From NCBI RefSeq assembly GCF_056746865.1, contig NZ_CM163382.1: a stretch of 64,000 bases of DNA. One strand, 5' to 3'. Made by a program: the position numbers and the translations under genes. The notes beneath the pieces were generated by a model. It was not told the DNA's origin. It ran no database searches and worked only from the letters and a program-made list of their open reading frames with translations. Below, in pieces: positions 2,341 to 57,478 of the stretch. Position 1 is the first letter of the stretch. The number at the start of each line of letters is the position of its first letter.

Positions 2341-3999
<1,659 letters not shown>

Positions 4000-4165
4000 T
4001 TACTTTTAGTCGCTTTATTGCAGGTGAGATTTGCGCGGCATCAACGGTAACACTTAAGTAACAACATTTAAATAATGTTTATAAATTATATTCTAATTTT
4101 AGAAACATTATGATTTCGTTGATTAATTATAGGGTTATTAGAAATGAAGGGATTTTTAGCATATT

Positions 4166-4192
4166 GACCTGGCGGCAGCAGTCCGCCAGGTC
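4166..4192 (-). terminator. Perfect 10-bp inverted repeat hairpin (GACCTGGCGG-N7-CCGCCAGGTC) just downstream of yojI stop
   Basis: Inverted repeat read directly; no clean U-tract follows on either strand, so function as terminator is uncertain. Confidence 0.35.
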
Positions 4193-4204
4193 AGCGTCGT
4201 AATA

Positions 4205-5848
4205 TTATGCCGTCCGGGCAACGGCATCACGCGAAGCGGCATCGCGCTCTTCGCCCGTCAGCTCGCTAAGTTGCCCGTTGCGCATTTCCAGCAGGCGGTC
4301 GGCGTGGATAAAGTAATGATCATCATGACTGATGGCGAAAATCGTTTTACCCATCTCCTGCATCAGCGGCAGCAACACCTGATAAAACTCACGACGGAAG
4401 TGTGGGTCCTGATCCGCCGCCCATTCATCCAGCAGGATAATATCGCGTTCTTCTGCCAGCGCCAGCAACAGCGCGACGCGTTTTTTCTGCCCTTTCGATA
4501 ACTTCAGGTTAACAATACGCCCGTTGCTTAACTCAAGCTTATGAGCCATTTTCAGTTGCGCCAGCCACTTCTCAATCAGTTGCGGGTTAGCGGGTTGACC
4601 CTCCGGCCCCAGCAGTTGATCGAACAGCCAGACATCGGTAAACACTGCCGAAAACAGTTTGCGATAATCTTCCGGTTGTTCGCCGCTGACAGGTTTGCCA
4701 TCCAGCAAGATTTCGCCGCTTTGTGGCTGATACAAGCCCGTCAGCAACATCGCCAGCGTCGATTTTCCACTACCGTTGCCACCAATCAGAAACAGCAGCT
4801 CGCCACGTTTAATGGTGAGGTTAATCGGCCCAACGGAAAACGCATTATCCTGATAAGCAAACGTCACGTTACGCAGCTCCAGCGTTTGCCAGTTGGGAAA
4901 CGCCTGCGGGCGTGGAAACTCTGCTTTGAAAGGTGCGAGCGCGAATTTGTTCAGCTTGTTAAACGCCACCTGCGCCGTCAGCAGCGTCGGTAATGCGCCA
5001 ACCGCCGAAAGCAGCGGCGTACGCAGGAATAACAGCGTCAACGAATAGGTCGCGGCAACGTTGGTATCAGCCCAACCGAGACTGTTCGCCATCCAGAACA
5101 CCAGGCCGATTGCGCCCAGCATCATGATGTTTGACCAGTTCACGGCACTAAGATGGAAGGTGTCTGCGCGAATAATATGATGGCGATACTCTTGCGCATC
5201 AGGAATGTAGAGGTTGTTAAACACATACTCGGCGCGTTCCCGGTTCAGAGTCAGCTCTTTGCGCCCTTCGAGTACGGTTTGAAAATCCGTGTACAGCTTG
5301 TCTTCGGTTTCACGCAGGGTCGCCATATGTTTGTACACCCGCGCCACCAGCACAAAACCGCCCCAGATGGTGACTGCCATCCAGATAGCCGTTACCAGCA
5401 ACATTTTGCCCGACAGCATCCACAAGTACGCCGCGGAACCGATAGTGAGGATGATCCCCTGCACCAGTTCCGGCAGACGCACAAAAGCAATGGTGATATT
5501 GCGCACATCGCTGGTTAATCCCGCCAGCAACGAAGCGCTACCAAGTTGTTCAATGCGCTCGACGTGGGTATCCAGAATCCGCTTGATAAATTCGCTACGC
5601 AGTCGGTAAACGAAGTGATGGCCCAGCGTAGTAAGCGCCAGTTGCGATCCGAGAGTGACAGCCATCAACAGTAGCAATAATCCCAGAAACTCCGGCAACA
5701 CCAGCAGACTGGTATCTGCCGTTTCGATAAGACGCTGATTGATAAAAGCAATTAAGCCAATGCCTAATGCCGCACTGGCGAGGCTTAGCGCCATCACACT
5801 GATAAATGGCCAGCGATACTGCCGCCAGACAAGTACAAGAAGTTCCAT
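4205..5848 (-). CDS. yojI: ABC transporter, fused permease/ATP-binding (microcin J25 efflux type), 547 aa
   Basis: N-terminal TM domain plus Walker [13 protein letters not shown] signature LSKGQKKR, Walker B ILLDEW in translation. Confidence 0.88.
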
Positions 5849-5923
5849 GCAGAAAACCCGGACAATGAATTACAGCCCGCAGTTTAAACATCTTCGCGCG
5901 CACAGCAATAATAATTCTTATTT

Positions 5924-6574
5924 TTATTCTTTTTTACCTGCCTGACGGAATGTCAGGTTGTAGCGGCAGTCGGTGGTGAGTGGATGAAACCCCGCTTTCA
6001 ACGGTTGAATGCCATGATAAAACAGCCGCGATTCACCGCCCCATACCACCACATCGCCATGTTCCAACAACAAACGTTTTAGCGGATCATTTCGTTTCAG
6101 GCCGCCAAATTGAAAAATCGCGGGTAAGCCCAGAGAAACAGAAACAATCGGCGCGCGCAGATCCGGTTCGTCTTTATCCTGATGCAGCGACAGTTTCGCG
6201 CCAGGAGCGTAGCGGTTGATAAGACAAGCATCTGGCTGGAAATCTGGATAGCCCGCCGCCGTAGCCGCACGTTGACATAAATCATGAAAGCTTTGTGGCA
6301 TGGCGGGCCACGGTTTATTTGTTTGCGGATCAATGGGCGAATAGAGATAACCTTGCCGATGGGTCGTCCAGCCCAGATGCCCACAGTTGGTCATCGCCAC
6401 CGACATGGTATATCCGCCTGGAGTGACCATCTGGCGAAACGGCGACTGGCTGGCAACATCATTAATATCGCGGATCAGTTGCTCCGCAGCGTTAAAAGTA
6501 AAACGCCGTAAAATTACCGCACCAGCCGCCAGAGGCTCTTGCCACGGTTCAGCATCGGCAAACAGATCCAACAT
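5924..6574 (-). CDS. alkB: AlkB, Fe(II)/2-oxoglutarate-dependent DNA/RNA demethylase (216 aa)
   Basis: Translation MLDLFADAEPWQEPLAAGAVILRRF...; start codon overlaps ada stop (TAATG). Confidence 0.92.
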   Translation of the reverse strand: MLDLFADAEPWQEPLAAGAVILRRFTFNAAEQLIRDINDVASQSPFRQMVTPGGYTMSVAMTNCGHLGWTTHRQGYLYSPIDPQTNKPWPAMPQSFHDLCQRAATAAGYPDFQPDACLINRYAPGAKLSLHQDKDEPDLRAPIVSVSLGLPAIFQFGGLKRNDPLKRLLLEHGDVVVWGGESRLFYHGIQPLKAGFHPLTTDCRYNLTFRQAGKKE

Positions 6575-7638
6575 TATCTCTCCTCATTTTCAGCTTCGCG
6601 GCGCAGCAGTTGTGCTTTACGCAACACGCCCCAGCGGTAACCGGAAAGTGTGCCATCACCACGGACCACCCGATGACAAGGTATAACGATAGCGAGCTTG
6701 TTGGCGGCACAGGCGCTGGCAACGGCACGTACCGCTTTCGGTTTGCCGATGGCGTTAGCCAGTTGCTGATAACTGACGGTTTCACCGCAAGGTATCGTGC
6801 GCAATGCCTGCCAGACTTGTTGCTGAAAAGCAGTGCCGCGAATGTCCAGCGGTAACGTCAGCGGCGTATCGCGTTGATTGAGGCTGGCGATCACTTCACG
6901 CACATGTTGCTGAAACGTCAGATCGGCAGGCGCGTTGTCGGCAGCGGGAAACATCTGCTGCAACTCGCTGATTAATGTCGCGTCATCATCGCCCAGCAAT
7001 ATCGCGCAAATCCCCCGCTCGCTTTCTGCCACCAGGCAACGGCCCAGCTCACAATCAGCCAGCGCGTAACGCACCGCCAGATTTTCGCCACCGTGACGGA
7101 ATTGTTTAGCCGTCATGCCCAGCGTTTCGTCGGCTTTGCGGTAGTAACTGCTGCTGTCGGGAAATCCGGCGTTAAGAATAGATGTAGTCACGCTCTCCCC
7201 TTTCGCCAGCGATTCGCGCAAACGGCGAGCGCGCCAGGCCTGTTGCCAGGCTTTCGGCGTCATTCCGGTAGTCGCTTTAAACAACCGATGCAGATGGAAC
7301 GGGCTCATCGCCACCTGGTCGGCTAAGGTTTCCAGCGTTACAGGCGTTTCCTGTTCCAGCAGTCGGCAGGCGTGGGTGATTTTATCCAACCGATGTTGCT
7401 GGGCATTGGCTTTATCGGGTTGGCAGCGTTTGCAGGGGCGAAATCCGGCGGTGAGTGCCTCACTGGCATTTGCGTAGAAGGAGACGTTTTCCCGCAAAGC
7501 ATGTCTGGCGCGGCAAGACGGACGGCAAAAGATGCCTGTGGTGCGCACGGCGAAAACGAATTCGCCGTCGGCATTCGGGTCGCGGGCTAAGACAGATTGC
7601 CAGCGTTGATCGTCAGTTAAGCATGTGGCGTTTTTCAT
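6574..7638 (-). CDS. ada: Ada, O6-methylguanine-DNA methyltransferase / transcriptional activator (354 aa)
   Basis: N-terminal Zn-Cys cluster (CRPSCRAR...CKRC), AraC-type HTH, C-terminal PCHRV active site in translation. Confidence 0.92.
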   Translation of the reverse strand: MKNATCLTDDQRWQSVLARDPNADGEFVFAVRTTGIFCRPSCRARHALRENVSFYANASEALTAGFRPCKRCQPDKANAQQHRLDKITHACRLLEQETPVTLETLADQVAMSPFHLHRLFKATTGMTPKAWQQAWRARRLRESLAKGESVTTSILNAGFPDSSSYYRKADETLGMTAKQFRHGGENLAVRYALADCELGRCLVAESERGICAILLGDDDATLISELQQMFPAADNAPADLTFQQHVREVIASLNQRDTPLTLPLDIRGTAFQQQVWQALRTIPCGETVSYQQLANAIGKPKAVRAVASACAANKLAIVIPCHRVVRGDGTLSGYRWGVLRKAQLLRREAENEER

Positions 7639-14065: not shown

Positions 14066-14259
<194 letters not shown>

Positions 14260-19102: not shown

Positions 19103-20484
19103 CTGCTATTAATCGCATCCTTATTGTGGATGATGAAGATAATGTTCGCCGTATGCTGAGCACCGCTTTTGCACTACAAGGATTCGAAACACATTGTGCG
19201 AACAACGGACGCACAGCATTACACCTGTTTGCCGATATTCACCCTGACGTGGTGTTGATGGATATCCGCATGCCAGAGATGGACGGCATCAAGGCACTCA
19301 AGGAGATGCGCAGCCATGAGACACGGACCCCCGTTATTCTGATGACGGCCTATGCTGAAGTGGAAACCGCCGTCGAAGCGCTACGCTGCGGGGCCTTCGA
19401 CTATGTTATCAAACCGTTTGATCTCGATGAGTTGAATTTAATCGTTCAGCGCGCTTTACAACTCCAGTCAATGAAAAAAGAGATCCGCCATCTGCACCAG
19501 GCACTGAGCACTAGCTGGCAATGGGGGCACATTCTCACCAACAGCCCGGCGATGATGGACATCTGCAAAGACACCGCCAAAATTGCCCTTTCTCAGGCCA
19601 GCGTCTTGATTAGCGGTGAAAGCGGCACCGGGAAAGAGCTGATTGCCAGAGCGATTCACTACAATTCGCGGCGGGCAAAGGGGCCGTTCATTAAAGTCAA
19701 CTGCGCGGCGCTGCCGGAATCGTTGCTCGAAAGTGAACTGTTTGGTCATGAAAAAGGTGCATTTACTGGTGCACAAACCTTGCGTCAGGGATTATTTGAA
19801 CGTGCCAACGAAGGTACTCTGCTCCTCGACGAAATTGGCGAAATGCCGCTCGTACTGCAAGCCAAATTACTACGCATTCTGCAGGAACGGGAATTTGAAC
19901 GGATTGGCGGCCATCAGACCATAAAAGTTGATATCCGCATCATTGCTGCCACCAACCGTGACTTGCAGGCAATGGTAAAAGAAGGCACCTTCCGTGAAGA
20001 TCTCTTTTATCGCCTTAACGTTATTCATTTAATACTGCCGCCTCTGCGCGATCGCCGGGAAGATATTTCCCTGTTAGCTAATCACTTTTTGCAAAAATTC
20101 AGTAGTGAGAATCAGCGCGATATTATCGACATCGATCCGATGGCAATGTCACTGCTTACCGCCTGGTCATGGCCGGGAAATATTCGAGAGCTTTCCAACG
20201 TTATTGAACGCGCCGTCGTGATGAACTCAGGCCCGATCATTTTTTCTGAGGATCTTCCGCCGCAGATTCGTCAGCCAGTCTGTAATGCTGGCGAGGTAAA
20301 AACATCCCCTGTCGGAGAGCGTAATTTAAAAGAGGAAATTAAACGCGTCGAAAAATGCATCATTATGGAAGTGCTGGAACAACAAGAAGGAAACCGAACC
20401 CGCACTGCTTTAATGCTGGGCATCAGTCGCCGTGCATTGATGTATAAACTCCAGGAATACGGTATCGATCCGGCGGATGTATAA
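19099..20484 (+). CDS. atoC: AtoC, sigma-54-dependent NtrC-family response regulator (461 aa)
   Basis: Receiver domain, AAA+ sigma-54 interaction domain (GESGTGKE, GAFTGA), C-terminal HTH; overlaps atoS stop. Confidence 0.92.
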   Translation: MTAINRILIVDDEDNVRRMLSTAFALQGFETHCANNGRTALHLFADIHPDVVLMDIRMPEMDGIKALKEMRSHETRTPVILMTAYAEVETAVEALRCGAFDYVIKPFDLDELNLIVQRALQLQSMKKEIRHLHQALSTSWQWGHILTNSPAMMDICKDTAKIALSQASVLISGESGTGKELIARAIHYNSRRAKGPFIKVNCAALPESLLESELFGHEKGAFTGAQTLRQGLFERANEGTLLLDEIGEMPLVLQAKLLRILQEREFERIGGHQTIKVDIRIIAATNRDLQAMVKEGTFREDLFYRLNVIHLILPPLRDRREDISLLANHFLQKFSSENQRDIIDIDPMAMSLLTAWSWPGNIRELSNVIERAVVMNSGPIIFSEDLPPQIRQPVCNAGEVKTSPVGERNLKEEIKRVEKCIIMEVLEQQEGNRTRTALMLGISRRALMYKLQEYGIDPADV

Positions 20485-20495
20485 CGCCAAAACTT

Positions 20496-20536
20496 GCTAT
20501 GCAGAAATTTGCACAGTGCGCAATTTTCTGCATAGC
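20496..20536 (+). promoter_or_regulatory. AtoC-binding inverted repeat (GCTATGCAGAAATTTGCACAGTGCGCAATTTTCTGCATAGC)
   Basis: 41-bp near-perfect palindrome about 85 bp upstream of the sigma-54 promoter; typical enhancer position. Confidence 0.7.
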
Positions 20537-53368: not shown

Positions 53369-57433
<4,065 letters not shown>

Positions 57434-57446
57434 ACTCCTTTCTGAT

Positions 57447-57478
57447 GCCCGGTAAGCATGTTGTTACCGGGCATTTTT
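57447..57478 (+). terminator. Rho-independent terminator after glpC
   Basis: GCCCGGTAA-GCATGTTG-TTACCGGGC stem-loop followed by ATTTTTG. Confidence 0.85.

Follow-up and report, generated by a model that had tools for sequence, protein, structure and literature searches.

In Escherichia coli, transcripts that depend on Rho have their 3' ends directly behind stable stem-loops (Dar & Sorek 2018, Nucleic Acids Res 46:6797, PMC6061677). These stem-loops are terminator-like, with a reduced U content and without an upstream A-tract, and the sequence 3' of the ends is mildly enriched in C over G. In the same study PNPase and RNase II trim longer primary transcripts back to the stem-loops, leaving precise steady-state 3' ends, and Rho dependence is commoner among weakly expressed genes. 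Intermediate cases, in which a hairpin is followed by a poor U-tract, are discussed there explicitly. Here we describe an inverted repeat behind yojI in a 64,000-nucleotide stretch of E. coli DNA (contig NZ_CM163382.1 of RefSeq assembly GCF_056746865.1), which we refer to as the window.

The yojI hairpin resembles the stem-loops of Dar & Sorek in being GC-rich, in standing shortly after the stop codon, in having the size and folding energy of a terminator and in lacking both a U-tail and an A-tract. It differs from them in that the stretch downstream is mainly AT-rich and G-poor, not C-rich. With canonical intrinsic terminators it shares the shape of the stem-loop and the placement behind a coding region, but it has no U-tract of 7–8 nt and no A-tract and fails a consensus scan, whereas genuine intrinsic terminators stand after yojI at the equivalent place in other genera. 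REP and BIME elements are likewise intergenic GC-rich palindromes 3' of genes with the potential to protect mRNA 3' ends. In contrast to these the yojI hairpin is single-copy, does not resemble the REP consensus (GCCGGATG...) and is confined to this locus and to Escherichia. It is an undescribed instance of a well-known kind of gene-end element.

The hairpin lies between two genes on the minus strand, which the first-pass annotation had named yojI and mqo in agreement with the RefSeq annotation of MG1655 (b2211 and b2210, respectively, both minus). yojI encodes the 547-residue microcin J25 efflux ABC transporter (4205–5848, stop codon TAA at 4207–4205). The downstream neighbor mqo encodes malate:quinone oxidoreductase (2341–3987), and the spacer between the two is 217 bp long. 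The stem-loop occupies 4165–4193 on the minus strand, equivalent to 2,306,932–2,306,960 of NC_000913.3; the MG1655 stretch is collinear, so that window position x converts to NC_000913.3 position x + 2,302,767. Read in the sense of yojI, the 5' arm TGACCTGGCGG (4193–4183) is followed by the 7-nt loop ACUGCUG (4182–4176) and the 3' arm CCGCCAGGTCA (4175–4165). Read on the plus strand, TGACCTGGCGG stands at 4165–4175 and CCGCCAGGTCA at 4183–4193, again a perfect match of 11 with 11 bp around a 7-nt loop. The sequence GACCTGGCGG-CAGCAGT-CCGCCAGGTC initially reported for 4166–4192 was found letter for letter and the repeat is indeed perfect, but its length had been given as 10 bp and is one pair greater. 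Its placement right after the yojI stop also held, as the stem base is separated from the TAA on the sense strand by an 11-nt spacer, UAUUACGACGC (4194–4204, minus strand), which contains no A-tract. The folded RNA has a dG of -22.2 kcal/mol, bearing out the expectation of a very stable hairpin.

In dinucleotide shuffles of the window, perfect 11-bp stems with loops of 3–10 nt arise 0.21 times on average (maximum 3), while the window itself has four distinct ones. The 86-nt context of the hairpin folds with a z-score of -3.8, and none of 200 shuffles folded equally well. The inverted repeat thus exceeds chance.

Single-copy status was evident at both scales. Of 5426 complete E. coli genomes 5421 have a match to the 217-bp spacer, and in 5421 genomes a 39-nt hairpin query (E ≤ 10) hits a single place each. 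Within the window no second copy was detected when up to three mismatches were allowed. Because the hairpin is single-copy, membership of REP, BIME or another repeat family is ruled out. Rfam 15 gave only chance-level matches at the hairpin (11–23 bits against cut-offs of 45–80 bits). Seven other sites in the window match the arm 11-mer TGACCTGGCGG with one mismatch (10929, 20159, 31240, 36401, 39544, 61706 and 63022), compared with about one expected from dinucleotide shuffles. Every one of them falls within coding sequence, with no common frame or strand, and we therefore rejected a regulon motif; the excess probably reflects an oligomer bias of coding sequence.

Long open reading frames (ORFs) in the window are commonly followed by strong hairpins that lack an adjacent T-run, although the count from our crude survey is unreliable since U residues paired within a stem were not scored as tail. 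The class as such is common. REP-type hairpins follow other genes, among them mqo, where a perfect 14-bp hairpin (GCCACATCCGGCAT / ATGCCGGATGTGGC, 3-nt loop) stands at 2304–2334, a few bases past the stop at 2341. Its extended form folds at -28 kcal/mol, and it has a REP-like CCGGATG core and no adjacent T-run. REP-like hairpins are also found between convergent ORFs at 14204–14242 and 37529–37562. A 20-nt near-palindrome with 90% complementarity (GCTATGCAGAAATTTGCACA / TGCGCAATTTTCTGCATAGC, 20496–20536) stands behind an ORF that ends at 20484. Another ORF, ending at 57433, is followed by a perfect 11-bp hairpin (57445–57474).

We compared 80 enterobacterial loci around yojI, about 75 of them from outside Escherichia. 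Only in Escherichia does mqo stand directly downstream of yojI. In Citrobacter the two are separated by mgtE, a gene for 478 residues with MgtE_N, CBS and MgtE domains, and the same reading frame begins right after yojI in several further genera. Loci that show mgtE in this place include L008 (4645–6230), L007, L021 and L010. Between E. coli and the other genera homology stops at the yojI stop (~4205–4209) and restarts at ~4140–4145 upstream of mqo, which places the hairpin inside an Escherichia-specific junction of ~55 nt. This junction (4146–4204, minus strand) has no counterpart in other genera and occupies the place where other enterobacteria carry mgtE. The comparison indicates that the yojI-mqo spacer of E. 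coli is an mgtE deletion junction. No similarity to the hairpin was found upstream of mqo in other genera, and descent from an mgtE terminator or from the mqo-upstream sequence of other genera was rejected for lack of similarity.

The ~75 loci from other genera nevertheless carry a hairpin at the same place. Each has an unrelated GC-rich hairpin 0–15 nt after yojI, with energies from -12 to -28 kcal/mol. Canonical terminators with a T-run are among them, as in Atlantibacter, Pseudocitrobacter and several Citrobacter and Kosakonia, and other hairpins lack a T-run next to the stem. Hairpins in this position across genera indicate that a 3' hairpin is a conserved positional feature of yojI, the sequence of which turns over. 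Conservation of the palindrome across enterobacteria had been proposed as a check at the outset, and it is seen within Escherichia while other genera have hairpins of unrelated sequence.

The spacers between yojI and mgtE have conserved sequence of their own. About 40–110 nt after the yojI stop, loci L009–L075 show a T-run followed by GTTTATTRTTATTTACA and later by CGCGCTATGCTTA, and this arrangement is conserved across many genera. It is presumably the promoter or leader of mgtE. Rfam returned no match for the yojI-mgtE spacers of three of the loci from other genera.

Two rearranged Escherichia loci separate the hairpin from the mqo side. In Escherichia sp. MOD1-EC7003 (L005) homology ends at 4164, at the edge of the hairpin, and the hairpin is kept. 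There an RHS-repeat fragment and small ORFs (4685–7178 of that locus) replace the mqo side, with the breakpoint at the last base of the stem. E. coli strain E3 carries an IS1 ~20 nt past the intact hairpin, in the DNA that separates yojI from the mqo promoter region (about 170–269 of locus L086).

Within E. coli the hairpin hardly varies and occurs in two main forms. About 2162 genomes have the perfect form, and ~3244 of 5421 differ from it at one position. In all four one-mismatch genomes that were read the difference was the MG1655-type allele, a C to T change in the 3' arm. In the yojI-sense RNA this allele keeps a G·U pair and folds at -19.5 kcal/mol; in RNA of the opposite strand it creates an A·C mismatch and the dG is -14.4 kcal/mol. 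A rare C to G allele in one E. coli genome (L091) places a G-G mismatch in the stem, and a divergent genome (L090) has a shorter stem of 9–10 bp with a different loop. In five other species-level representatives of Escherichia the loop is different in every case, and the loops seen read ACUGCUG, AUCGCUG, CUCGCUG, GCUACUG, ACAGCUG and AUCUAUG. As for the stem, L006 has a double change from G-C to A-U, L004 an additional G·U and L005 two broken apical pairs.

Over 13 distinct Escherichia sequences 98.6% of stem cells are paired. Five of seven loop columns vary, compared with six of 22 in the stem and ~11 of 33 in the flanks, and four of the six variable stem columns keep pairing. The pair-preserving stem changes comprise one G-C to A-U double change and two changes from G-C to G·U, of which the latter two allow pairing only in RNA of the yojI sense. 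This pattern is suggestive of selection on the RNA stem of the yojI-sense strand but does not amount to proof. The covariation is thin, consisting of one double change in one lineage, and its score was matched by 33 of 500 column shuffles.

We favor, with moderate confidence, the reading that the inverted repeat is the 3'-terminal stem-loop of the yojI mRNA, formed by Rho-dependent termination and subsequent trimming. Polymerase would continue beyond the yojI stop codon and traverse the hairpin, as there is no U-tract to release it efficiently. With the ribosomes gone, the RNA beyond the hairpin would be untranslated, unstructured and G-poor, allowing Rho to load. Termination by Rho would follow at scattered sites in the AT-rich spacer, ahead of the mqo promoter or close to it. 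Finally the 3'-to-5' exonucleases PNPase and RNase II would trim the tail to the base of the 11-bp stem, leaving a protected yojI 3' end predicted at ~4164–4158 (NC_000913.3 ~2306931–2306925, minus strand). The role of Rho, the trimming and the site of the 3' end are all inferred. yojI is probably a weakly expressed gene.

The candidate Rho loading region is the untranslated, G-poor stretch directly 3' of the hairpin (4087–4164, minus strand). Its 78 nt include 13 C but only 4 G, and within the window this C/G ratio ranks at the 99.8th percentile. With just 17% C, however, and a C-G difference no higher than the 90th percentile, the stretch is poor in G rather than rich in C; the rut-like signal 3' of the hairpin is weak.

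The breaks in homology, the retention of the hairpin in MOD1-EC7003 and E3 and the distance of the mqo promoter argue that the hairpin is tied to the 3' end of yojI and not to the regulation of mqo. As in the class described by Dar & Sorek, the stem-loop is stable and has neither a U-rich tail nor an upstream A-tract. The first-pass annotation had offered three functions, and an RNase-protective 3' structure is the best supported of them, as the hairpin stays with yojI, its wobble pairs form in the sense RNA only and its anatomy is that of Rho-dependent ends. The data of Adams et al. 2021 contain no curated 3' end and no Rho region within 2,305,000–2,308,999. Their lists are silent across this whole region, including ada and alkB, and therefore carry little weight. 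TERMITe and the supplements on metagenome stem-loops have no entry for yojI or mqo. A search of the literature on yojI together with mqo found only the promoter table of Shimada et al. 2014, and nothing on a yojI-mqo terminator or on Rho dependence of yojI.

A fairly unlikely alternative is that the hairpin acts as a weak, non-canonical intrinsic terminator. The stem-loop and the tail AAUAU(G/U)CU would release part of the polymerases, perhaps aided by NusA or NusG, with Rho and the spacer dealing with the rest. Partial hairpin-driven termination at a poor U-tract is a possible second contribution and compatible with a Rho-dependent end. The geometry (11-bp GC-rich stem 3' of the gene, 7-nt loop, about -22 kcal/mol) equals that of intrinsic terminators, true U-tract terminators follow yojI in other genera, and intermediate cases of this kind are treated in PMC6061677. 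Most other Escherichia lineages have four U in the first eight nt of the tail (AUAUUCUA), the poor U-tract after the stem reading AAUAUUCU in most of them and AAUAUGCU in the window. The window tail, on the other hand, has only three T in eight on the minus strand (ATATGCTA; as RNA AUAUGCUA, three U in eight), interrupted by A, G and C where a U-tract of ~7–8 nt would be expected right after the stem. On the plus strand two of eight are T (GCGTCGTA), and the tail GCGUCGUA (2/8) offers no U-tract on that strand either, in line with the original remark that no T-run follows on either strand. No A-tract precedes the stem, and a consensus terminator scan returned no terminator-like site at the hairpin. 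The suggestion of a Rho-independent-like attenuator is thus weakly supported with 3–4 U in eight and no A-tract, while its milder form, partial release at the hairpin, is possible.

It is unlikely that the hairpin has no selected function. It would then be a by-product of the rearrangement that removed mgtE in the ancestor of Escherichia, kept perfect by short divergence and by template-switch correction. Template-switch mutation at quasi-palindromes can yield paired changes without selection. Inversion of the loop by template switching was ruled out, as the loop variants are not mutual reverse complements. The absence of function would be consistent with the position of the hairpin within the Escherichia-only junction of ~55 nt, with variable columns that are not clearly fewer in the stem than in the flanks, with a covariation signal of one event, with the two pairs lost in MOD1-EC7003 and with a mismatch allele in E. 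coli. Against this, five of seven loop columns vary while four of the six variable stem columns keep pairing, and the wobble changes are strand-specific. Moreover, every other genus examined has a strong, unrelated hairpin after yojI, which argues for a need.

The palindrome could also be the site of a dimeric regulator of mqo (or yojI), with the arms as half-sites and the variable 7 bp as spacer, yet we consider this very unlikely. The perfection of the repeat, its conserved arms and its free spacer would suit such an operator, and the spacer upstream of mqo is listed as H-NS-bound by Shimada et al. 2014. The mqo promoter listed in the same work, TTGATG-16-TGCAAT, lies at 4017–4044 (minus strand). 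The hairpin is placed at about -155 to -183 relative to the predicted mqo start, with the promoter ~150–180 bp downstream of it, and outside the mqo-upstream block that is conserved in other genera; it is thus neither within promoter reach nor conserved together with the promoter. It is kept in MOD1-EC7003, where mqo is no longer downstream. The majority E. coli allele renders the half-sites unequal but keeps the RNA pairing, and the paired change from G-C to A-U is as expected from base pairing. The window contains no other palindrome of this kind, the seven near-matches to the arm all fall in coding sequence and the hairpin is single-copy in every genome. We do not favor the protein-binding palindrome proposed in the first-pass annotation, as the promoter is far away, the site is outside the conserved block and the commonest E. 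coli allele breaks its symmetry.

Two further features were observed upstream of mqo. An AT-rich inverted repeat of 14 nt, 93% complementary with a 12-nt gap (ATAATGTTTATAAA / TTTAGAAACATTAT, 4072–4085 / 4098–4111), lies within the spacer that Shimada et al. 2014 list as H-NS-bound. Directly upstream of the mqo -35 hexamer (4044–4039) stands GTTACTTAAGTGTTA (4062–4048, minus strand). This sequence resembles the direct-repeat box of ArcA (GTTAATTAAATGTTA) and would fit the reported control of mqo by ArcA.

Lastly, a role on the plus strand, in which the hairpin would stop or stabilize an antisense RNA running from the AT-rich mqo-upstream region into yojI, is extremely improbable: there is one promoter-like plus-strand site (4047–4076) and plus-strand RNA of the window allele folds at -21.6 kcal/mol, but the number of promoter-like sites equals the chance expectation, no T-run follows the stem on this strand and, in the commonest allele, the plus-strand hairpin drops to -14.4 kcal/mol whereas its minus-strand counterpart is spared.

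The favored reading of the hairpin as the protected 3' end of the yojI mRNA, if confirmed, would fix where the yojI transcription unit ends on its 3' side and explain how yojI and mqo are separated into distinct units only 217 bp apart. Beyond annotation its significance is slight; it opens no long-standing question, and the evolutionary aspect alone is mildly interesting. Conceivably, although we regard this as quite improbable, the hairpin arose de novo at the mgtE-loss junction in the Escherichia ancestor and replaced an ancestral U-tract terminator, shifting 3'-end formation from intrinsic to Rho-dependent. It might also shield the mqo promoter, its new neighbor, from read-through out of yojI. 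If true, this would be a datable, lineage-specific case of turnover in terminator type. The locus provides a small, clean example of how enterobacterial genes may keep the position of a 3' hairpin while its sequence, and possibly the mode of termination, turn over between genera.
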